Both the position numbers and the translations under genes were made by a program. A DNA stretch of 64,000 bases, taken from Candidatus Acidiferrales bacterium (lineage in GTDB: Bacteria > Acidobacteriota > Terriglobia > Acidiferrales > UBA7541). Below the pieces are notes generated by a model. The model did no database searches and had not been told where the DNA came from. It was given only the letters and a program-made list of their open reading frames with translations. Location of the stretch: positions 26,005 through 90,004 of the forward strand of contig JBOGNO010000006.1 in the NCBI GenBank assembly GCA_050747245.1, read 5' to 3'. Shown one piece after another: positions 1,155 through 55,178 of this stretch (its first letter is position 1; each line of letters starts with the position of its first letter).

Positions 1155-2219
1155 CTACTTGTGCTGAATGGCGGCTGGAGAACGCTGGGCATCGAGGGGC
1201 GTGAGCTGGACGCGCCAAGTGAGCGGGATGGACATTGGGAGATAGCAAACCTTCTTGTCGCAAGCCTGATATTTCAATTCACCGACAATATCGATGGCTT
1301 TTCCCGAGGGCGCGAGCGAATGGATCAGCTCGTCGGAGGAAGCGAATGTCACGTCCTGGGCGATGCGGAATTTGCCTTCGAAGACGGGGACAGTCTCATT
1401 GATGGCCTCGAGATGTAACATTTTAGAGGCGGGATAAGAAGTTGGGCCGGCGTGGAAATCAGGAGCGGGTTGCAGAGAAAGAGATATGGGCTTGTAGCCT
1501 TTGACGCCCGGGGAATAAACGTGGACCTCGGGCGGGAGCTCGGCTTCGACGAGCAAGGTGATGCGGCTGCCGGGAACCGCGGTGAGGTCCGATTGCGCAA
1601 GAGATATTCTCAGGTGAGGGGCGTTGACGCTTGAGACAGTTTGCTCAGCAAGTTGGGGAAACAATTTCAGAATAACGTTGTTGGGAGTGAAGCGGTCGCT
1701 GAAGCGATCTTCGAAATATTTTTCGCGGATCACGCCCGATTCGTCAATAAAGAAGAATCCCGCAAAAGCCATTCCTTTGGTGAAGCCGGGAGCATGTTGG
1801 GCGAGGACGCCGAAACTGCGGATGATTTTCGAATCGGGGTCGGCGAGCAGCGGGAACTCAATCTTTCTCCGGGAGGAGAAGTCCTTCAGGATTTCCGGGG
1901 AGTCGTAGCTGATGGCGGCGAGCTTGAGGCCCTGGTTTTCAATTCTCTGTTTGGCGGCTTGCAGCTGCACGAGCTGCGCTTTGCAGAAGGGTCACCAATC
2001 GGCGGAGCGGACAAACAGCAGGATGGTGCCGCGGCGGCCACGCAATGTTTCATTGCTCTGTTCATGGCCGAATTGATCGCGGACTGAAAACGCAGGCGCT
2101 CTGGCGCCGACGGCCAGTCCGATGGCGGAAGGATGCGCATCTGACGAAGGAGCACCCGATTGCGCGAAGACGATCGCTGCGAAAAAAAGGACCAGAGCGG
2201 CGACGGACAAGGATTTCAT
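1155..2219 (-). CDS. putative secreted selenoprotein: TlpA/ResA-like redoxin domain with a UxxC motif and an in-frame TGA at 1992-1994, fused to a DsbD-alpha-like domain
   Basis: Track ORFs 1992..2219 and 1155..1970 are in the same frame, separated by one TGA and 7 sense codons. The read-through protein is a signal peptide (MKSLSVAALVLFFAAIVFAQS), then ...ILLFVRSADW-U-PFCKAQL..., a redoxin body (LADPDSKIIRSFGVL, FFFIDESGVIREKYF) and a C-terminal YQACDKKVCYLP motif matching DsbD-alpha. U sits where the first Cys of the thioredoxin-fold CxxC normally is. A SECIS-like hairpin follows. Confidence 0.6.
1957..1984 (-). promoter_or_regulatory. candidate bacterial SECIS stem-loop downstream of the in-frame UGA
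   Basis: The mRNA reads UGA CCC UUC UGC AAA GC-GCAGCU-CGUGC-AGCUGC-AAGC. A perfect 6 bp stem, extendable to 7 bp by an adjacent G-C, carries a 5 nt apical loop CGUGC. Its G and U lie at +25/+26 from the UGA U, against +23/+24 for the conserved GU in E. coli fdhF SECIS. Confidence 0.45.
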
Positions 2220-3025
2220 TGTTCAGCACGCGCAGAAGCCGCGCCCCAGATCCTGCCGCCATTTCCTTCCTGAATGAATGCCACTACGCGGTTGCTGGCA
2301 GCCGATCCACCTTTGAGACCGATGGCGACATCGCCTGAAAACGGCGCGGTCCTGTCCACTTTACCGACTTTCTCCAAGTTTCTCAGAACTGCAACGTAGG
2401 AGAGCTTGCGGCCGGAGTTTTCTCCGCCTTGGACTTGCGACTCGTCGCTGTCGTCGGCAACGGCGAGGATGATGCTCGCTTGCCCGACGCCAGCGGAGGC
2501 GGGCAGCGGGCCGGCGTTGAGGTGCATGGCGAAGCGATGTCCGGAGACAAGATGGATGCCGGAGAGAGTGACTGGGGCTTTCTCCGAACCCGAAGCTGTG
2601 GCGATAGCACGGAGGGCAGTGCGTTCGTCGCTGCCGACAAATTCGAAGCGGCCGTCCACGACCATCTGGGGCGTGTAGGCTTCGGGAATCCGCAGGATTG
2701 AAACGTACGCGCGTTGACGCTCGGTGAAATCGTGCGAGGAAAAAGGATCGCGCCAGCCGCCGTCGTCCCAGTAGTCCACATGCTCGCTGAGGACGATGAT
2801 TTCGGCAGCCGGAACGGGCTGGGAGCGATCCAGATCCGCGAGAAATTTATCGGCGGGAGGGCAACTGGAGCAGCCTTCGGAGGTGAAAAGCTCAACGAGG
2901 ACGGGAGTGCGGGTAGTGGCCCCGGGCGCGGGCGGCACAGGCGCAGGCTCCAATTTGGGGAGAAAGAACGCACTAAGAATAAGTAGTGCTGGGACAGAAA
3001 AAATGACAAGTGCGCGAAGTTTCAT
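2216..3025 (-). CDS. DUF1223 family secreted protein with a CxxC motif
   Basis: A signal peptide (MKLRALVIFSVPALLILSA) is followed by ELFTSEGCSSCPPADKF, typical of DUF1223. Its stop overlaps the start of the selenoprotein gene by 4 nt (ATGA), which suggests an operon. Confidence 0.75.
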   Translation of the reverse strand: MKLRALVIFSVPALLILSAFFLPKLEPAPVPPAPGATTRTPVLVELFTSEGCSSCPPADKFLADLDRSQPVPAAEIIVLSEHVDYWDDGGWRDPFSSHDFTERQRAYVSILRIPEAYTPQMVVDGRFEFVGSDERTALRAIATASGSEKAPVTLSGIHLVSGHRFAMHLNAGPLPASAGVGQASIILAVADDSDESQVQGGENSGRKLSYVAVLRNLEKVGKVDRTAPFSGDVAIGLKGGSAASNRVVAFIQEGNGGRIWGAASARAEQ

Positions 3026-3251
3026 AAAATGTATGCCAAGCAGTTGAGGCCGCAACACCAAATTGGCCCTACCCCTTTCGATGAACAGTATAGAGAAAAG
3101 TTTCGGCTAAATGGGAGTTGCGAGCGGGTGGCTAGGGCGGAATGCTAACGCACGAGTGAGGCGCTGACGCACCTCACCGCCCACAGGGGGATCTGCGTCC
3201 TCCGGTGCGGGACGCAGATCACGAGTTGCCGCGGCAAAAAAATCCCGACTG

Positions 3252-4416: not shown

Positions 4417-5901
4417 ATGCGATTGCATGTACGGTCCCGTCGTCGCGTAGCACGGCCCGGAAACGGCATGTTGCGGCTTCTTGCCGCGACAGGTCTTTTC
4501 GTAGTCGCGATCTTTACGATGGCGATGCTGGTAGAAGCTCAGAACGTAACTCTGCATGATCCCGGCGTGCGCGGCGGGACAATTGATTCCGGACAGCCGC
4601 TCTCAACGCTCACAGCCGCACAAGGTCAGTTTTTCGCGGACGGACTCGGCCGGTTTATCCAGGTGGATTCCGTCAGTGGGAATGGCGGATCCATCACCAA
4701 CGAACCGGGGGTAGGTCTGGGGCCGCGATTCAACAACAACTCCTGCGGAGGCTGCCACTCGCAGCCCGATGTCGGCGGGACAAGCCCTCGTGCCGACCAG
4801 TTCCCGTTCATCGGACCCAACCCGCAGACTCAAGTCTTCAACCTCGACGGGGCGCAGAACACGCTGCCCTCATTCATCACCTCGGATGGGCCTGTGCGCG
4901 AAGCGCGGTTCAAGTTTTTTTTGAATCCCGACGGTTCGCTCAGTAGCAATCCGGACGGAGGCGTTCATGACCTGTTTGTGATCGAGGGGCGCTCGGATGC
5001 TGCGAGTTGCGAGCTTGAACAGCCAAAGTTCAGCCACAACCAGGCTCTAAATAACGTGATCTTCCGGATTCCCACGCCCACGTTCGGCGAGGGATTGATT
5101 GAAAATATTCCGGACGAAACCATCCTCGCGAACATGAATGCCAACGCCGCGCAAAAACAGGCGCTCGGCATTTCCGGGCATCCCAACCACAATGGAAACG
5201 ATGGAACGATCTCCCGGTTCGGCTGGAAAGCTCAGAACAAATCGCTCGAGATTTTCGCGGGCGAGGCGTACAACGTCGAAATCGGCGTGACCAATGAGTT
5301 GTTCCAGAATGAGCGGCCGAGCCCTGACGAGGAACAAAAGAACGGCCTTCCGGCAAGTTGTAAGCTGAACCCGACGCCGGAAGACTCGACGAACTTCGCG
5401 CAGGGAACGAACGGAAACGCAAGCATCCCGAGCGATACAGTGCAGTTCGCGATGTTCATGCGGTTCCTCGCTCCGCCCACACCTTCGACCACGAATCCCG
5501 GAGGAGCGACGTCGATCGCGAACGGCCGCGAGGACTTCATCGACATCGGCTGCGCGATGTGCCACACGCCAACGCTGAAGACGGCGCACTCATCGTTCAC
5601 CTCGGGATTGGATAACGTCAACGCAAACCTGTTCTCCGATTTGCTCGACCATCACATGGGCACGAATCTGGCAGACGGCGTCTCGCAAGGAGGCGCGGGA
5701 ACGGACGAATTCCGCTCCGCACCGCTGTGGGGCCTCGGGCAGCGCATTTTCTTCCTGCACGACGGGAGGACACGCGACCTGCTGGATGCGATTGAGGAGC
5801 ACTCCAGCTCCGGATCGGAGGCCAATACAGTAATTCAAAACTTCAACAACCTCACACCACAGCAGCAGCAGGATCTTCTGAACTTCCTGCGGTCGCTGTA
5901 A
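4417..5901 (+). CDS. di-haem oxidoreductase (DHOR/DUF1111-like, putative cytochrome c peroxidase-type)
   Basis: A strong RBS (AAGGAGG, 6 nt spacing) precedes the ATG. It has a signal/TM N-terminus and two CxxCH haem motifs (SCGGCHS and GCAMCHT). The C-terminal FFLHDGRTRDLLDAIEEH is like the DHOR family. Confidence 0.7.
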   Translation: MRLHVRSRRRVARPGNGMLRLLAATGLFVVAIFTMAMLVEAQNVTLHDPGVRGGTIDSGQPLSTLTAAQGQFFADGLGRFIQVDSVSGNGGSITNEPGVGLGPRFNNNSCGGCHSQPDVGGTSPRADQFPFIGPNPQTQVFNLDGAQNTLPSFITSDGPVREARFKFFLNPDGSLSSNPDGGVHDLFVIEGRSDAASCELEQPKFSHNQALNNVIFRIPTPTFGEGLIENIPDETILANMNANAAQKQALGISGHPNHNGNDGTISRFGWKAQNKSLEIFAGEAYNVEIGVTNELFQNERPSPDEEQKNGLPASCKLNPTPEDSTNFAQGTNGNASIPSDTVQFAMFMRFLAPPTPSTTNPGGATSIANGREDFIDIGCAMCHTPTLKTAHSSFTSGLDNVNANLFSDLLDHHMGTNLADGVSQGGAGTDEFRSAPLWGLGQRIFFLHDGRTRDLLDAIEEHSSSGSEANTVIQNFNNLTPQQQQDLLNFLRSL

Positions 5902-12700: not shown

Positions 12701-12778
12701 TGGCGGGGCCGACGGGACTCGAACCCGCGACCTCCTGCGTGACAGGCAGGCGTTCTAAACCGACTGAACTACGGCCCC
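12701..12778 (-). tRNA. tRNA-Asp (anticodon GTC)
   Basis: A manual cloverleaf fold gives acceptor GGGGCCG/CGGCCCC, D-stem GUUC/GAAC, anticodon stem CCUGC/GCAGG with loop CUGUCAC, a T-arm with GUUCGAGU, discriminator G and an encoded CCA. Confidence 0.9.
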
Positions 12779-12806
12779 GCGAATTAAAGCTTGCAGCTAA
12801 ACTCTG

Positions 12807-12882
12807 TGGTGGGCGGTCACAGACTTGAACTGTGGACCTTCCCGGTGTAAGCGGGATGCTCTAACCACTGAGCTAACCGCCC
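12807..12882 (-). tRNA. tRNA-Val (anticodon TAC)
   Basis: A manual fold gives acceptor GGGCGGU/ACCGCCC, D-stem GCUC/GAGC, anticodon stem UCCCG/CGGGA with loop CUUACAC, T-stem CACAG/CUGUG with loop UUCAAGU, discriminator A and an encoded CCA. Confidence 0.9.
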
Positions 12883-43804: not shown

Positions 43805-46591
43805 ATGAGCTGGCGGCGATTTTTACACCGGCGTGAGTGGGGCGCGGAGCGCGCGCGGGAAATCGACTCGTACGTGGAGATGGAGACGCAAGAGAACCTG
43901 GCTCGGGGAATGAGCGCGGAGGAAGCGCGGTACGCGGCGCTGAGGAAATTCGGGAATCGGAGGCGGGTGCGCGAGGAGATCTACGCAATGAACAGTCTTG
44001 GATTCTTGGAAACGCTGTGGCAGGACGTGCGATACGGGGTGCGGATGCTCGCGAAAACTCCGGGATTTGCGCTGGTGGCCGTACTCACGCTGGCGCTGGG
44101 GATTGGAGCGAACACGGCGATATTCAGTTTCCTCGACGCCGCGCTGCTGCAGTCGCTTCCGGTGAAAGATGCGAGTCATCTTGTGGTCTTGCAATGGAGC
44201 GCGCACAAGAGGCCGAAGCGGAACAGCTCTTCGAGTTACGGAGACTGCCCGGAGAAATGGGGCGGAGAAAACCCCACCGGCTGCTCGCTCTCGCTGCCAT
44301 TTCTGCACGACGTACGGACAGAGACAAACGTTTTTTCGGGGATGGCGGCGTTTGCTTCCGCGGGCCAACTGAATCTGAGCGGCCACGGGAATGCGGCGCT
44401 GGAGCGCGGGCAATACGTTTCGGGGGATTTTTTCCAGACGCTGGGAGTTCGCGCCGCGCTGGGGAGGACCATTACACCGAGCGATGACTTAGCGACAGCT
44501 TCTCCTGCCGTGGTGCTCGGATATGGGTACTGGAAGCGTGAATTCGGAGCGCAGGCTTCGGCGGTGGGGAAGACGATCCAATTAAATGGCGTGCCTTTCA
44601 CGATTGTGGGCGTGGTCCAGCCAGAATTCTACGGCGTCTCGCCGGGGAGCGATTTTGAATTGTGGGTGCCGCTGGCGATTCGCCCACGGATGGACGCCCG
44701 GCACTGGGAGGCCAACAAGCTGGACAGTGAATCTTCGTGGTGGATTGTGATGGTGGGCCATCTGAAGCCGGAGGTGAAGCTCGCGCAAGCCCAAGCGGCG
44801 GTCAGCTTGCTCTTCCGCAACGATATGCTGCGCGGAGCCAAGCCACTGCTGACGGCGGAGGACGATCCGCGCATCCAGTTGATTCCCATACAGGCGGGGC
44901 TTACGGGGGAACGGGGACAGCTCGCCGCTGCGCTCTTCGCGATCATGGCCGGCGTGGGAATTATTTTGCTGATTGCCTGCGCGAATGTCGCCGGGCTGTT
45001 GCTGGCGCGTTCAACGACGAGGCACAAAGAAATGGCGGTCCGGCTGGCGCTGGGCGCCGGACGGTTGCGGCTGATCCGGCAACTACTGACAGAAAGCGTT
45101 CTGCTTTCACTGATCGGAGGCACGCTGGGAGTGCTGCTGGCGTACTGGGGGATTCGAGCGCTCGTGGCATTCATCGCGGGCGTGACCGATGAGCCCATTC
45201 CGTTTCAACCGGGGATCGATCTGGCAGTGCTGGGATTCACATTTGGAGTGTCGATCCTGACGGGAATTCTGTTTGGCCTGGCGCCGGCGCTGCGCGCGAC
45301 CCGGCAGGACTTGACGCCCGCACTAAAGCTGAGTTCGGGAGATGCGTGGGGAGGGACGCATGTGCGGCGAAGTTTCTTCGGACTTGGCAACGTGCTGGTA
45401 GTAACGCAAGTGGCGCTGAGCGTGGTGGTGCTGGCGGGGGCGGGGCTATTGGTACGCACGCTGAGGAATCTGCGAAGCGTGGACCCCGGGTTCGACACGA
45501 GCAATGTGCTGCTCTTCGGGATGCAGCCAACTTTAGCGGGTTATAAAGGAGCACAGATAGACGGCCTATACCGCGATCTCTACGCGCGGATCTCGGCGCT
45601 GCCGGGGGTAGTGTCGGTGAGCTATTCAGACTCGCCATTGCTGAGCGGAAGCCAGAGCAGCATGACCACGCAGTATGTTCGCCCGGGTGCGTCCGAAAAG
45701 AGCGATATCGAGTTTGACCTTCTTCCCGTGAGCGCGAAGTTTTTCGAGACGTTGCGGATTCCTTTCCTCGCAGGAAGGGATTTGATTCTCGAGGATTTTG
45801 TCATCCAGGAAGCGTACGAGGCTTCTCCGCACACGGCGACAACGCCCACACCGGTGGTTGTGAACGAGATTTTTGCCAAGCGCTACTACCCGAGTGTGAA
45901 TCCGCTGGGACAGATCTTTGGAGTCAACGACGGGAAAAAGGAAGGCGAGGACAAAGACGCGGGGTTTCAAATTGTAGGTGTGGTGGGCGACGCAAAGTAC
46001 AGCAATCTGCGCCGGGAACTGGCGGCGACGGCGTACATTCCTCTGGCAGCTTCGGACGCTCATTTCGAGGTGCGCACCGCGATGCCGCCCGAGTCACTGA
46101 TACCCGCGGTGCGAAGCGTGGTGAACCAGCGCGACGCGAACTTGCCGCTCTTCGATATTCGCACGGAAAGACAGCAGATTGACCAGCAGCTTGTGGCGGA
46201 GCGCATCGTGGTGCGCATCTCAAGTTCGGTAGGCGTGCTGGCGCTGCTGCTAGCGTGCGTGGGGCTTTACGGTTTGCTGGCATATGAGGTGGCACGGCGG
46301 ACTCGGGAGATCGGTATCCGCATAGCATTGGGGGCGCAAGGGCGGGACGTGTTGCGGCTCGTCGTGGGTCAGGGAATTGCGCTGGCGTTCGTGGGCACGC
46401 TGCTGGGGATTGCCGCGGCACTGGGAGTGACGCGATTAATGGCCAGCGTTCTCTACGGCGTGCGCCCGGGTGATCCCGTGACGTTCGTGGCCGTGGCGGC
46501 GCTGCTGATGATCATCGCTTTTGCGGCGTGCTGGATTCCGGCGCGGCGGGCCATGCATGTGGACCCGATTGTGGCGCTGCGGTACGAGTGA
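43805..46591 (+). CDS. ADOP-family duplicated FtsX permease (MacB-like ABC permease)
   Basis: The ATG is 4 nt after the PadR stop. A characteristic N-terminal extension (ARYAALRKFGNRRRVREE...WQDVRYGVRML) precedes two MacB-periplasmic/FtsX repeats. Confidence 0.85.
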   Translation: MSWRRFLHRREWGAERAREIDSYVEMETQENLARGMSAEEARYAALRKFGNRRRVREEIYAMNSLGFLETLWQDVRYGVRMLAKTPGFALVAVLTLALGIGANTAIFSFLDAALLQSLPVKDASHLVVLQWSAHKRPKRNSSSSYGDCPEKWGGENPTGCSLSLPFLHDVRTETNVFSGMAAFASAGQLNLSGHGNAALERGQYVSGDFFQTLGVRAALGRTITPSDDLATASPAVVLGYGYWKREFGAQASAVGKTIQLNGVPFTIVGVVQPEFYGVSPGSDFELWVPLAIRPRMDARHWEANKLDSESSWWIVMVGHLKPEVKLAQAQAAVSLLFRNDMLRGAKPLLTAEDDPRIQLIPIQAGLTGERGQLAAALFAIMAGVGIILLIACANVAGLLLARSTTRHKEMAVRLALGAGRLRLIRQLLTESVLLSLIGGTLGVLLAYWGIRALVAFIAGVTDEPIPFQPGIDLAVLGFTFGVSILTGILFGLAPALRATRQDLTPALKLSSGDAWGGTHVRRSFFGLGNVLVVTQVALSVVVLAGAGLLVRTLRNLRSVDPGFDTSNVLLFGMQPTLAGYKGAQIDGLYRDLYARISALPGVVSVSYSDSPLLSGSQSSMTTQYVRPGASEKSDIEFDLLPVSAKFFETLRIPFLAGRDLILEDFVIQEAYEASPHTATTPTPVVVNEIFAKRYYPSVNPLGQIFGVNDGKKEGEDKDAGFQIVGVVGDAKYSNLRRELAATAYIPLAASDAHFEVRTAMPPESLIPAVRSVVNQRDANLPLFDIRTERQQIDQQLVAERIVVRISSSVGVLALLLACVGLYGLLAYEVARRTREIGIRIALGAQGRDVLRLVVGQGIALAFVGTLLGIAAALGVTRLMASVLYGVRPGDPVTFVAVAALLMIIAFAACWIPARRAMHVDPIVALRYE

Positions 46592-46803
46592 ACTTGGGCT
46601 TACGTGAATGCGATAACAGATGAAATTGAGCGATCCGCGGCAGCGTCCGGCGACGCAACCTGAAAATCCAAAAAGCGGTCAGTGGATGCTTAACTATTGG
46701 GCTTTCCCGCGTCTAACCGCCTGAGCTGAATGATGCTGCTCGCAATTGAACCTGGCACTCGCGGTGCAGTCATGCATCACATCGGTGTCCCGGAGGTGCG
46801 GAA

Positions 46804-49296
46804 ATGGGATCGTTCTGGCAGGACGTGCGCTATGGATTGCGACAACTTCGACTGAGCCCGGGCTTCGCCGTGGTGGCCGTACTTTCGCTGGCGCTGGGGA
46901 TTGGTGCGAACACCTCCATCTTCCAGCTCATTGACGCCATTCGTTTGCGCACGATTCCGGCAAAGCATCCCGAGCAGCTTGCCACCATCCGCATTGCAGA
47001 CAGACACTGGGCCTCGGGCAATTTTTCGAGCAATTATCCGCAGCTTTCGTACCCCATGTGGCAGCAGATCCGCCAGCGGCAGGAGGCACTCTCTCCCATC
47101 GCTGTGTGGAGCAACACTACATTCAATCTTTCCACGGGCGGCGAAGCACACTATGCCCAGGGAATCTGGGTTAGCGGCGATTTTTTCAATGTGCTGGGAG
47201 TGCAGCCGTTCATTGGAAGGCTGATTTCGCCTGCCGAGGACGTTGCAGGCTGCGGTTCGGCGGGAGTGGATATCAGTTACTCGTTCTGGCAGCGGCAGTA
47301 CGGCGGCCAAGCTTCCGCCGTGGGGAAGCAAATTACCCTCGACGGGCACCCGTTTGTGATCCTCGGAGTCGCGCCGCCCGGGTTTCGCGGAATTTCCGTA
47401 GGGGATTATTTCGATGTGGCCGTGCCGGTTTGTTCGGAGCCGGTGGACCAGGGAGAAGATTCAAGACTCAACATGCGCTGGGGATGGTGGCTCGCTTCGA
47501 TAGGGCGGCTGAAGCCGGGGTGGACGTTGGAGAAGGCGAATGCGCAGTTGAAGGTGATCACGCCCGCGGTGCTTCAAGAGACGATTCCGCCGCAGTATGA
47601 CGCGCAAGGCGTGAAACACTATCTTGAATACCAGCTCGCCGCATATCCGGCGGCGACGGGGTTTTCCAACATGCGTGAGCAATCGGAGACTCCTTTGTAC
47701 CTGCTGCTGGGAATTTCAGGGCTAGTGCTGCTGATCGCCTGCGCCAACATCGCTAACTTGATGCTGGCGCGGGCTAGTGTGCGCGAGCGCGAGATTGCCG
47801 TGCGGCTGGCGCTCGGAGCCTCGCGCGGGAGGCTGATCCGGCAGTTGCTCTCGGAAAGCCTGCTGCTGGCCGTGGCAGGTGCAATTTGCGGCGCGCTCCT
47901 GGCCGGGGTGATGAGTCAATCGCTCATCTCGTTCCTAAGCACGACCAACAACCCGGTCTTCTTGGACCTGGGCCTCGACTGGCGCGTGCTGGGTTTCGCG
48001 ACCGGGCTGGCGTTTCTCACGACGATTCTTTTCGGGCTGATGCCCGCCGTGCGCGCCACAGGCACGTCTCCGGCTGAGGTCTTAAAAGCGGGCAGCCGGG
48101 GCATGACTGCTTCGCCCGAACGATTCGGTCTGCGACGAATTCTAGTGACTTCGCAAGTGGCTCTTTCACTGGTGCTGCTGGTGGGTGCGCTACTGTTCGT
48201 GCGCAGCCTGCGGAATCTAATGACGCTGGACGCAGGATTTCAGCAGAACGGGATTCTGATAGCCAACCTGGATTTCACGCGGATGAATTTGGCGAGCGAG
48301 CGACGATTCGATTTCAAGCACACTTTACTCGAGCATCTTCGCGCGATTCCGGGTGTGGAATCCGCGGCGGAATCGCAGACGACGCCCGTGAGCGGAAATT
48401 CATGGAACCGGACGGTTCTGGGCGATACGCCCGAAAAAGGGCTCGGCAATGTGTGGCTCATCTACGCCAGCCCCGAGTATTTCAAAACATACGGGATTCC
48501 TATCCTGGCGGGGAGAGACATCGCGGAAAGCGATACAGCGACCTCGCCGAAAGTCGCCGTCGTCAATCAGGCGTTCGTCGCCAAGTATTTTGGCGGACAG
48601 AGCCCGGTGGGAAAGACGTTCCGGATTCAGCCGTTTGCGGGAGAGCAACCTCCCGTTTATGAAATCATCGGCGTGGTAAAAAATGCGATTTATCAGGACA
48701 TGCATGAAGAATTTCTGCCGACAGCGTACTTCCCGGAATCGCAGCGATCCAAGCCGGACTCATTTACCAACGTAACGATGCGCTCGAACGTGGCGCTCGC
48801 CGGGCTGATCAATTCAGTTAAGGGCGCCGTGGGGGACGTCAACCCGGATATTGATATTGATTTTCGTGTGTTTAAGACGCAAATCCGCGAATCACTGTTG
48901 CAGGACGAGCTGATGGCCACGCTCTCCGGCTTCTTCGGATTTCTAGCGGCGCTGCTCGCGGCCATCGGGCTTTACGGAGTGATTTCCTACATGGTGGCGC
49001 AGCGCAGGAACGAAATCGGAATCCGCATGGCGCTCGGGGCGCAACGCGGCGACGTGGTGGGCATGATGATGCGCGAGGCGGGGCTTCTGGTGGGCATCGG
49101 GCTGGTGGTGGGGAGCGTGCTGGGGCTCGTGGCCGCGAAGGAAGCGGCATCGCTGCTCTTCGGGCTGAAGCCACGAGACCCGGTGACGTTTGTGATGGCG
49201 GTCGTCGCGCTCGCCGTGGTGGCGGCGCTCGCGAGCTTCCTGCCAGCGCGTCGCGCCGCGGCGCTCGACCCCTGGACGGCGCTCCGCGACGAATAA
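46804..49296 (+). CDS. ADOP-family duplicated FtsX permease, second copy
   Basis: It begins directly at MGSFWQDVRYGLRQL with two FtsX repeats. The N-terminal extension seen in the upstream paralog is absent. Confidence 0.85.
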   Translation: MGSFWQDVRYGLRQLRLSPGFAVVAVLSLALGIGANTSIFQLIDAIRLRTIPAKHPEQLATIRIADRHWASGNFSSNYPQLSYPMWQQIRQRQEALSPIAVWSNTTFNLSTGGEAHYAQGIWVSGDFFNVLGVQPFIGRLISPAEDVAGCGSAGVDISYSFWQRQYGGQASAVGKQITLDGHPFVILGVAPPGFRGISVGDYFDVAVPVCSEPVDQGEDSRLNMRWGWWLASIGRLKPGWTLEKANAQLKVITPAVLQETIPPQYDAQGVKHYLEYQLAAYPAATGFSNMREQSETPLYLLLGISGLVLLIACANIANLMLARASVREREIAVRLALGASRGRLIRQLLSESLLLAVAGAICGALLAGVMSQSLISFLSTTNNPVFLDLGLDWRVLGFATGLAFLTTILFGLMPAVRATGTSPAEVLKAGSRGMTASPERFGLRRILVTSQVALSLVLLVGALLFVRSLRNLMTLDAGFQQNGILIANLDFTRMNLASERRFDFKHTLLEHLRAIPGVESAAESQTTPVSGNSWNRTVLGDTPEKGLGNVWLIYASPEYFKTYGIPILAGRDIAESDTATSPKVAVVNQAFVAKYFGGQSPVGKTFRIQPFAGEQPPVYEIIGVVKNAIYQDMHEEFLPTAYFPESQRSKPDSFTNVTMRSNVALAGLINSVKGAVGDVNPDIDIDFRVFKTQIRESLLQDELMATLSGFFGFLAALLAAIGLYGVISYMVAQRRNEIGIRMALGAQRGDVVGMMMREAGLLVGIGLVVGSVLGLVAAKEAASLLFGLKPRDPVTFVMAVVALAVVAALASFLPARRAAALDPWTALRDE

Positions 49297-53869: not shown

Positions 53870-53960
53870 TAAGTTCCTCCTCACACATCATACGCGCAGC
53901 GGGGCCAGCGAAGCGTTCTTGTGTATCATGGACGAGGGAGTAGCGGGAGAGAACAGGGCG

Positions 53961-55178
53961 ATGGTCTGGTCGGAGACATGGAGCCTGGCGCTGCAATCGC
54001 TGCGCGCGCACAAGATGCGCGCAATGCTGGCGATGCTGAGCGTCGTGATCGGCAGCGCGTGCATCGTGCTGGTGGTCACCGTAGCCCTTGCGGGAAGACG
54101 TTACGTGCTCTCGCAAATCGAAGCAGTGGGCTCCAATATCGTTTTTGCAGACTTGGTGGAATCGTCGGCGGCGCAGAGCACCACGCTTTCGGATTATATC
54201 TCGCTCGATGACCTCGCGGCCGTGCGCGAAAACGTTCCGCGAGCGATCGAGGTAGCTGGAACGCGCAACATGCCCATGACCGTGGTAGCCGGCGGCAATG
54301 CCTGGCCCGTGAGTCTGGTTGGCGCTACGCCGGGCTTTCAGAAAATCCGCAACCTGGTCATCGTGAGCGGGCGTTACCTCGATGACGGCGACTTCTTGAC
54401 GCGCAGCAAGGTGTGCGTGGTGAGCGAGCACTTGGCTGCATTGGCGTTTCCGCATGAGTCTGCCCTCGGCCATGATCTCCACGTGGGCGAGCTGAGTTTC
54501 AGCGTCGTGGGAATTTTTCGCGAGCGCGTGGCGACGTTTGGCCAGTCGGAAATTTCCCTGGATTCCGTGATCATTCCATTTCCGCTCTTCCGGTATTACA
54601 CCGGAGATGAATTCATCGAGACGTTTTACGCGCAGGCAGCTACGCCCGCGGACGTGCCCGTGGTGACGAGCGAGGTGGCGGAAATTCTGAAGGGCCGCCA
54701 TCGCCCGCAGGCGGAGTACAACGTGCAAAACCTTATCGCCATCCTGGCCGCGACGCGGCGCATCTCTCTAGCCATGACCGCGGTGCTGCTGCTCTTGGCG
54801 CTGACGGCGCTCGTCGTGAGCGGCGTGGGTATCATGAACATCATGCTCGCGAGCGTAACGGAGCGGACCATGGAGATCGGCATTCGCAAGGCCATCGGCG
54901 CGAGGCGGCGTGAAATTCTGGCGCAGTTTTTGCTTGAAGGAACGCTCATAAGCGCTGCCGGAGCGCTTATCGGCATCGGCGTGGCCGTGTTTCTGCCGGT
55001 TTCGATTCGCGCCTTGATGCGGCTCCTTCCCGTGCCCGGAGACATCACCGTTCCGATCTCGTGGCTTTCGGTGGTGCTGGCCTTTGTAGTATCCTGCGTT
55101 TCGGGCATATTATTCGGCTACCTTCCGGCAAGAAGGGCCGCCAGACTCGAGCCCGTAGAATCGCTACATTATGAATAG
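53961..55178 (+). CDS. ABC transporter permease, MacB-like (FtsX family), orphan
   Basis: An N-terminal TM helix, a MacB periplasmic domain, and a C-terminal FtsX 4-TM domain (GIRKAIGARRREIL) are present. No ATPase or MFP gene is adjacent. Confidence 0.75.
   Translation: MVWSETWSLALQSLRAHKMRAMLAMLSVVIGSACIVLVVTVALAGRRYVLSQIEAVGSNIVFADLVESSAAQSTTLSDYISLDDLAAVRENVPRAIEVAGTRNMPMTVVAGGNAWPVSLVGATPGFQKIRNLVIVSGRYLDDGDFLTRSKVCVVSEHLAALAFPHESALGHDLHVGELSFSVVGIFRERVATFGQSEISLDSVIIPFPLFRYYTGDEFIETFYAQAATPADVPVVTSEVAEILKGRHRPQAEYNVQNLIAILAATRRISLAMTAVLLLLALTALVVSGVGIMNIMLASVTERTMEIGIRKAIGARRREILAQFLLEGTLISAAGALIGIGVAVFLPVSIRALMRLLPVPGDITVPISWLSVVLAFVVSCVSGILFGYLPARRAARLEPVESLHYE

Follow-up and report, generated by a model that had tools for sequence, protein, structure and literature searches.

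The hairpin formed by positions 1977-1961 of the minus strand is very probably a bSECIS, serving the in-frame UGA at 1994-1992 within the coding sequence of a Prx-like UxxC protein with a DsbD_N-like domain. Since the hairpin is conserved and of the bSECIS type, the UGA is predicted, almost with certainty, to be read as selenocysteine (Sec). The original prediction, which favoured SelB-dependent recoding over termination, is thereby supported on four grounds, namely, covariation of the stem, agreement with the bSECIS model, loss of the perfect stem in all 13 Cys forms and linkage of orthologues to sel genes, the participation of SelB itself being argued by analogy. The features concerned are listed in Table 1, with positions referring to the window, that is, the whole stretch of 64,000 nucleotides (64 kb) that was analysed.

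Table 1. Features of the putative selenoprotein locus. Offsets are counted from the U of the UGA, taken as +1.
Feature	Position	Strand	Description	Basis
DUF1223 gene (CSSC motif)	2216..3061	(-)	Upstream of the putative selenoprotein gene	Pfam DUF1223, E 1e-54
Putative selenoprotein gene	1155..2219	(-)	355 codons including stop; ATG 2219 to TAG 1155	Translation
In-frame UGA, predicted to be read as Sec	1992..1994	(-)	Codon 76; first residue of UxxC	
Spacer between UGA and hairpin	1978..1991	(-)	14 nt, +4 to +17; encodes P-F-C-K-A (first two positions of the Ala codon)	
Stem, 5' arm GCAGCU	1972..1977	(-)	+18 to +23	
Apical loop CGUGC	1967..1971	(-)	+24 to +28; G25 (1970) and U26 (1969) open a Val codon	
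Stem, 3' arm AGCUGC	1961..1966	(-)	+29 to +34	

Translation of the reading frame from 2219 to 1155 showed that it is broken only once, by the TGA at codon 76. Two Pfam domains could be assigned to the read-through product, namely, AhpC-TSA at residues 37-166 (E 3e-26), which includes the TGA codon, and DsbD_N at residues 214-329 (E 7e-9), in the C-terminal part. The AhpC-TSA domain contains the redox motif W-U-P-F-C at residues 75-79, the partner Cys of the UxxC motif being encoded at 1983-1985, and the DsbD_N-like domain contains a C-x4-C motif. The protein has full-length homologues with 55-64% identity, and its hydrophobic N-terminus, MKSLSVAALVLFFAAIVFAQ, is a probable signal peptide. Judging from these sequence features, the gene product combines a Prx-like thiol:disulfide oxidoreductase (UxxC) with a fused DsbD_N-like domain and is probably exported. 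A search of NCBIfam returned no model at cut-off for this protein, the best score being 54.6 bits against a cut-off of 140.

That the TGA might be a true stop, leaving either a pseudogene or two small genes to which the hairpin is irrelevant, is suggested by mechanical ORF calling, which splits the gene into ORFs of 75 aa and 271 aa, and by the lack of sel genes in the 64-kb window. We regard this as extremely unlikely, because one Pfam domain spans the TGA, and because over 190 loci, belonging to many species, retain the TGA at the catalytic position and have the frame open before and after it, which is incompatible with decay. The two ORFs would thus be one 354-residue selenoprotein with Sec in its UxxC redox centre, which would settle the annotation of the locus.

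The context of the gene is conserved as well. The TGA stop of the DUF1223 gene overlaps the ATG of the putative selenoprotein gene (ATGA, 2216-2219), from which we take the two genes to form, probably, one operon. Likewise, 33 retrieved loci have a DUF1223 gene directly before the orthologue, which points to a conserved pair or operon.

The position of the UGA within the family was established from both proteins and DNA. In 99 of 120 database homologues codon 76 is aligned with Cys, within the motif WCP[YF]C; this alignment with the redox Cys, together with the AhpC-TSA domain that runs through the TGA, was counted in favour of the Sec reading. A further 18 of the 120 (proteins P0001-P0030 and others) show a 'W' at the Sec position, which represents mistranslated TGA, since the corresponding codon in locus L201 is TGA and public gene calls have evidently translated it as Trp. 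A reading of TGA as Trp in the organism itself was rejected on the same codon, and on the Cys that true homologues carry at this position. A search for the TGA-specific pattern D-W-TGA-P-[FY]-C-K retrieved at least 120 metagenomic loci, all from the same family and all with the frame open on both sides of the TGA. Moreover, when each GTDB species was represented by a single genome and searched with a profile, the best 80 loci came mostly from Acidobacteriota/Terriglobia MAGs, with TGA in 71 and TGC or TGT in nine. One close orthologue (L202:728, protein P0006) has CGA (Arg) in place of TGA and keeps five of the six hairpin pairs, which is due either to a sequencing error or to a T-to-C change by which Sec was recently lost. 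The complete Acidobacteriota chromosome OY969555.1 carries two TGA paralogues (L121 and L151), about 4.5 Mb apart. A motif scan for TGA readthrough revealed no second selenoprotein gene in the 64-kb window.

The hairpin itself can be read directly from the minus-strand RNA, which around the UGA runs UGG UGA CCC UUC UGC AAA GCG CAG CUC GUG CAG CUG CAA GCC. It comprises 17 nt, with a 6-bp stem and a 5-nt loop, and is encoded by the residues A-Q-L-V-Q-L-Q. Much of the anatomy originally predicted is therefore found in the sequence, namely, the perfect stem GCAGCU/AGCUGC with its five-nucleotide loop, and the loop GU at +25/+26 from the UGA. Three details had to be amended. First, the spacer, given as 15 nt, has 14 nt. 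Second, the proposed extension of the stem by an adjacent seventh G-C pair is absent, as neither C17/A35 nor C24/C28 pair in the window. Third, the lower UGC/GCA helix is not conserved among 72 types of orthologue. The minimum free energy (MFE) structure of the window sequence does add the pairs G16-C38 and C17-G37 across an A35A36 bulge, plus 11-41 and 12-40, but pairs 16-38, 17-37, 11-41 and 12-40 are formed in only 7, 17, 35 and 29 of the 72 types, respectively, so that lower-stem extensions were rejected as a conserved feature.

When folded alone, the 28-nt region adopts exactly the hairpin described, at -9.0 kcal/mol. For contexts beginning with the UGA or downstream of it, as with the ribosome on the UGA, the probability of the six stem pairs is 0.82-0.99, and for the context from -15 to +60 it is 0.63-0.70; in a 58-nt context the MFE structure is in an alternative register, which has no comparative support. 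The folding energy is not significant in comparison with shuffled controls, which is formally the first of the two outcomes that the original prediction had named as refuting it: dinucleotide shuffles give structures no less stable than the native one (z of +0.49 with the 28-nt region and +0.93 with the 58-nt context). Resampling of synonymous codons for AQLVQLQ, with the codon usage of the window, gave all six Watson-Crick pairs in 7.4% of draws, and in 12% when G-U was allowed. Thus, in this single sequence the hairpin is no better than chance and on its own it is weak evidence, although the shuffle z-score is in turn a weak test for a GC-rich palindrome of 17 nt within a coding region. In Rfam, no match at gathering score was obtained in the window, and nothing relevant appeared at E <= 10 between 1900 and 2050.

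These single-sequence results are what would be expected if the hairpin were a by-product of the Q-L-V-Q-L repeat and a GC-rich codon bias, with no role in decoding. The codons CAG and CUG are self-complementary, the perfect stem arises in some of the synonymous draws, shuffling does not weaken the fold, and Cys-form orthologues with QLIQL keep three to five of the six pairs. We nevertheless consider such an origin very unlikely, given the behaviour of the stem across orthologues: synonymous and non-synonymous sites covary in a manner that keeps Watson-Crick pairs, and the perfect core and the residues encoded by the loop separate TGA forms from Cys forms, as detailed below.

For this comparison we used 179 distinct TGA orthologues from soil and marine metagenomes and from 71 GTDB species, mostly Acidobacteriota. 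The hairpin proved to be conserved in orthologues that keep the TGA, so that the second refuting outcome named in the original prediction is decisively contradicted, with all six Watson-Crick pairs present in 163 of the 179 and compensatory changes at three pairs. These changes were scored in an alignment (A2) with one representative per distinct 21-nt core, amounting to 72 TGA sequences, as follows: pair 18-34 (GC 45, CG 13, UG 4, UA 2, AU 1), pair 21-31 (GC 55, AU 14, GU 2) and pair 22-30 (CG 68, UA 4). Among these 72 core types 92.9% of the cells are paired, versus 82.8% in column shuffles, none of 500 of which reached 92.9%; controls with slid partners had 11-42% of cells paired. Fisher 2x2 tests gave 6e-12 for pair 21/31 and 1e-6 for 22/30, values to be read with the relatedness of the orthologues in mind, as the counts are not independent events. 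RNAalifold on 75 columns (-15 to +60) returned the hairpin of 6 bp with a 5-nt loop as the sole consensus structure.

The covariation can be followed at the level of codons, with CAG/CUG replaced by CAA/UUG and by UUG/CAA, and with the third position of the Ala codon changing together with the first position of a Gln or Glu codon. The latter is pair 18-34, in which the partner of a synonymous third position is the first base of a codon (+34, Gln CAA/CAG versus Glu GAA/GAG); its covariation across that first codon position indicates that the RNA constraint reaches into the protein sequence. Among the matches listed, unique metagenomic TGA orthologues have G25 in 116 of 116 cases and U26 in 115 of 116. 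The distance from the UGA to the loop, of 20 nt (+4 to +23), is invariant in orthologues and without indels. Synonymous sites in the spacer vary freely (at +6, C46/G45/A14/T11), and therefore no extra RNA constraint was detected there. Positions +24 and +28 (N1/N2) pair in 46 of the 72 types, which yields 7 bp and a GUN triloop, and are C/C in the window.

Two further patterns were noticed in the alignment. Loop positions +24 and +27 (A2 columns 39 and 42; window positions 1971 and 1968) are correlated, with C..G in 30, G..C in 23 and G..U in 6 of the 72 types; the two positions are too close for pairing within the loop. Four marine members (L051, L052, L056 and L067) are divergent, with the motif SRSFDW-U-PFCK. 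In these a Thr, Ile or Val codon replaces the Gln/Glu codon after the stem, and the codon before the stem ends in U, so that pair 18-34 becomes U-A or U-G.

The covariation is confined to TGA orthologues. The control consisted of only 13 DNAs of Cys-codon orthologues (nine from genomes and four from metagenome contigs), none of which has an all-Watson-Crick six-pair stem, G-U wobbles and mismatches being found instead. The five core pairs are all Watson-Crick in 173 of 179 TGA forms versus 0 of 13 Cys forms (Fisher 5e-16). In terms of energy, the fixed hairpin has a median of -7.5 kcal/mol in TGA forms and of -2.9 kcal/mol in Cys forms, and a local MFE of -7.5 kcal/mol or lower is reached by 92% of the former (n=179) versus 8% of the latter (n=13). 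The Cys forms do keep a degraded helix, which implies that the Q-L-x-Q-L peptide accounts for some of the capacity to pair.

The peptide encoded by the loop and the 3' arm differs in the same direction. It is V[Q/E] in 18 of 18 database TGA forms, whereas the 99 database Cys forms have IQ (78), MD (18), VD (2) or TQ (1); that is, Val is invariant in Sec forms, and Ile, Met or Thr occupies this position in 97 of 99 Cys forms. Since Val (GUN) followed by Gln or Glu occurs only with TGA, the presence of the UGA is linked both with the loop G-U, which opens the Val codon, and with the G/A at +30. Such coupling of Val to UGA is a prediction of a SECIS, and a purely protein-level constraint does not predict it. 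The same comparison bears on other RNA roles that could be proposed for the hairpin, such as ribosome pausing, mRNA stability or attenuation, all of them unrelated to SelB. Any stable hairpin in a coding region can slow ribosomes, but this one has neither a U-tract nor terminator features, is strictly coupled to a TGA 14 nt upstream and lost in Cys forms, and has an invariant loop G-U, as in SECIS loops bound by SelB; hence, we give these roles next to no chance.

The genes needed for Sec insertion were then sought in the window and in orthologous loci. Within the 64-kb window neither a tRNA-Sec (ARAGORN, Rfam) nor selA, selB or selD, among 30 large ORFs (Pfam), could be found, and the sel genes presumably lie elsewhere in the source genome. 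The orthologues, on the other hand, are linked to such genes. In loci L177 (7043-11634) and L176 (6123-10711) the orthologue is directly followed by selB, selA and selD. The selB genes score 321-332 bits with TIGR00475, versus a cut-off of 242, and their products carry a C-terminal SelB-wing_3 domain; selA scores 466 bits and selD 321-347 bits. A tRNA-Sec was identified in both loci by ARAGORN and by Rfam RF01852 (57-63 bits), so that the sel operon there is complete. In L040 the orthologue is immediately preceded by a tRNA-Sec of 72 bits (1871-1966). In contig DATNIO010000217.1 the sel operon is flanked by two TGA paralogues. Use of Sec in Acidobacteria is documented (PMC1794560, Table 2; PMC12013277, Table 2).

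The identity of these tRNAs is also relevant to whether the UGA could be recoded to an amino acid other than Sec, either to Cys, by SelB and a tRNA(Sec)-like tRNA-Cys, or to Trp or another residue, by an allo-tRNA suppressor. Acidobacteria have allo-tRNAs that are possible nonsense suppressors, and selC* tRNA-Cys genes occur in other phyla (PMC5389517). In that study, however, selC* genes were not found in Acidobacteria, and the tRNAs adjacent to orthologues score as tRNA-Sec in Rfam and stand beside selA and selD, which are needed only for Sec. In addition, Trp at the position of the redox-active Cys would inactivate UxxC. Non-Sec recoding is left, in our view, with a very slender chance, and decoding of the UGA as Sec is the reading adopted in what follows.

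In E. coli and Moorella, SelB-GTP-Sec-tRNA(Sec) binds the loop G-U via its last winged-helix domain. By analogy with these systems, we infer that SelB binds the present hairpin and that Sec is inserted at the UGA. As the UGA nears the ribosomal A site, the hairpin, starting 14 nt downstream, would still be folded and would stand just outside the mRNA entry channel. Its apical loop would expose G25 and U26, to which SelB, carrying GTP and Sec-tRNA(Sec), may then bind through its C-terminal winged-helix domain. The ternary complex tethered in this way at the ribosome would allow the UGA to be decoded as Sec, and not by release factor 2.

One close counterpart is the SECIS of E. coli fdhF, a SelB-binding hairpin with loop G23/U24 and a bulged U17, the literature on which is said to be that of Bock, Huttenhofer and Engelberg-Kulka. 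Both are minimal elements, with an upper stem-loop of some 17 nt at a fixed short distance 3' of the UGA, with an exposed loop G-U, at +25/+26 here and at +23/+24 in fdhF. Unlike in fdhF, the stem here is a continuous 6-bp helix without a bulged U and of unrelated sequence, the spacer has 14 nt as against 11 nt, and the UGA is not part of an extended lower helix. The hairpin would thus do the work of the fdhF SECIS with a stem of another sequence type.

A more general reference is the consensus bSECIS model, reportedly that of Zhang and Gladyshev (bSECISearch). As drawn in a paper that summarises it, the model has an apical loop of 3-9 nt and an upper stem of 4-16 bp (PMC13188914, Fig. 2A), with G as the first or second loop nucleotide, often in the pattern N1-G-[G/U]-N-N2 with N1/N2 able to pair, a distance from the UGA to the loop of 16-37 nt and an MFE of -7.5 kcal/mol or lower (PMC13188914). 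The hairpin fits this model in all four respects, with a 5-nt loop (C-G-U-G-C), a 6-bp stem, a distance of 20 nt and -9.0 kcal/mol. It also lies, as the model has it, in the coding region just 3' of a UGA that is aligned with the Cys of homologues, and its structure is kept in TGA orthologues and lost in Cys orthologues. It departs from the model in that N1/N2 are C/C in the window, giving a pentaloop and not a triloop, and in that there is no conserved lower stem; nothing essential differs.

The protein, for its part, belongs to a class of selenoproteins, the Prx-like thiol:disulfide oxidoreductases, that reportedly goes back to work by Kryukov and Gladyshev in 2004. This family (PF00578, UxxC) is listed in PMC1794560 and PMC13188914. 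Shared with it are the AhpC/TSA fold, Sec as the first residue of UxxC and abundant Cys homologues, membership being assigned by PF00578 and UxxC. The present proteins differ from it by their probable signal peptide and C-terminal DsbD_N-like domain, by the DUF1223 gene partner and by their occurrence mainly in soil Acidobacteriota.

The proposed mechanism is that of textbook SelB/SECIS recoding, and the protein class has long been known, as has the use of Sec in Acidobacteria, since 2006. What is new is modest, namely, a probably exported subfamily with a fused DsbD_N domain, its DUF1223 operon partner, its abundance in soil Acidobacteriota and the lack of an NCBIfam model at cut-off. It is tempting to go further and to speculate, although we would sooner doubt this than assert it, that these proteins are an uncatalogued and very widespread subfamily of exported selenoproteins (signal peptide, Prx-like UxxC, DsbD-alpha-like C-x4-C, DUF1223 operon), typical of largely aerobic soil Acidobacteriota, in which the minimal N-G-U-N-N hairpin imposes the peptide QLV[QE]L. 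If this were true, the subfamily, which flanks the selB-selA-selD-selC operon in some genomes, could be a principal reason why the Sec trait is kept in these bacteria, and the +24/+27 loop correlation might reflect a lineage-specific rule of recognition by SelB.

The family has practical interest as well. It is systematically mis-called in public data, either truncated or with its TGA translated as Trp. Furthermore, the more than 170 Sec forms, set against the Cys forms, amount to a clean natural experiment on how a SECIS within a coding region constrains synonymous sites and amino acids, with Val-Gln/Glu obligatory in the Sec forms.

Some other features of the window were recorded. An ORF at 4417-5901 of the plus strand encodes 494 aa with two CxxCH haem-binding motifs (SCGGCH and GCAMCH), and from these motifs a di-haem c-type cytochrome, or else a peroxidase-like protein, is the probable product. 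Apart from the adjacent tRNA-Asp(GTC) and tRNA-Val(TAC), at 12701-12882 of the minus strand, the window has no tRNA genes. Finally, three MacB/FtsX-type ABC permease genes are situated on the plus strand at 43805-49296 and 53919-55178, two of them being tandem paralogues whose long products have 928 and 830 aa.
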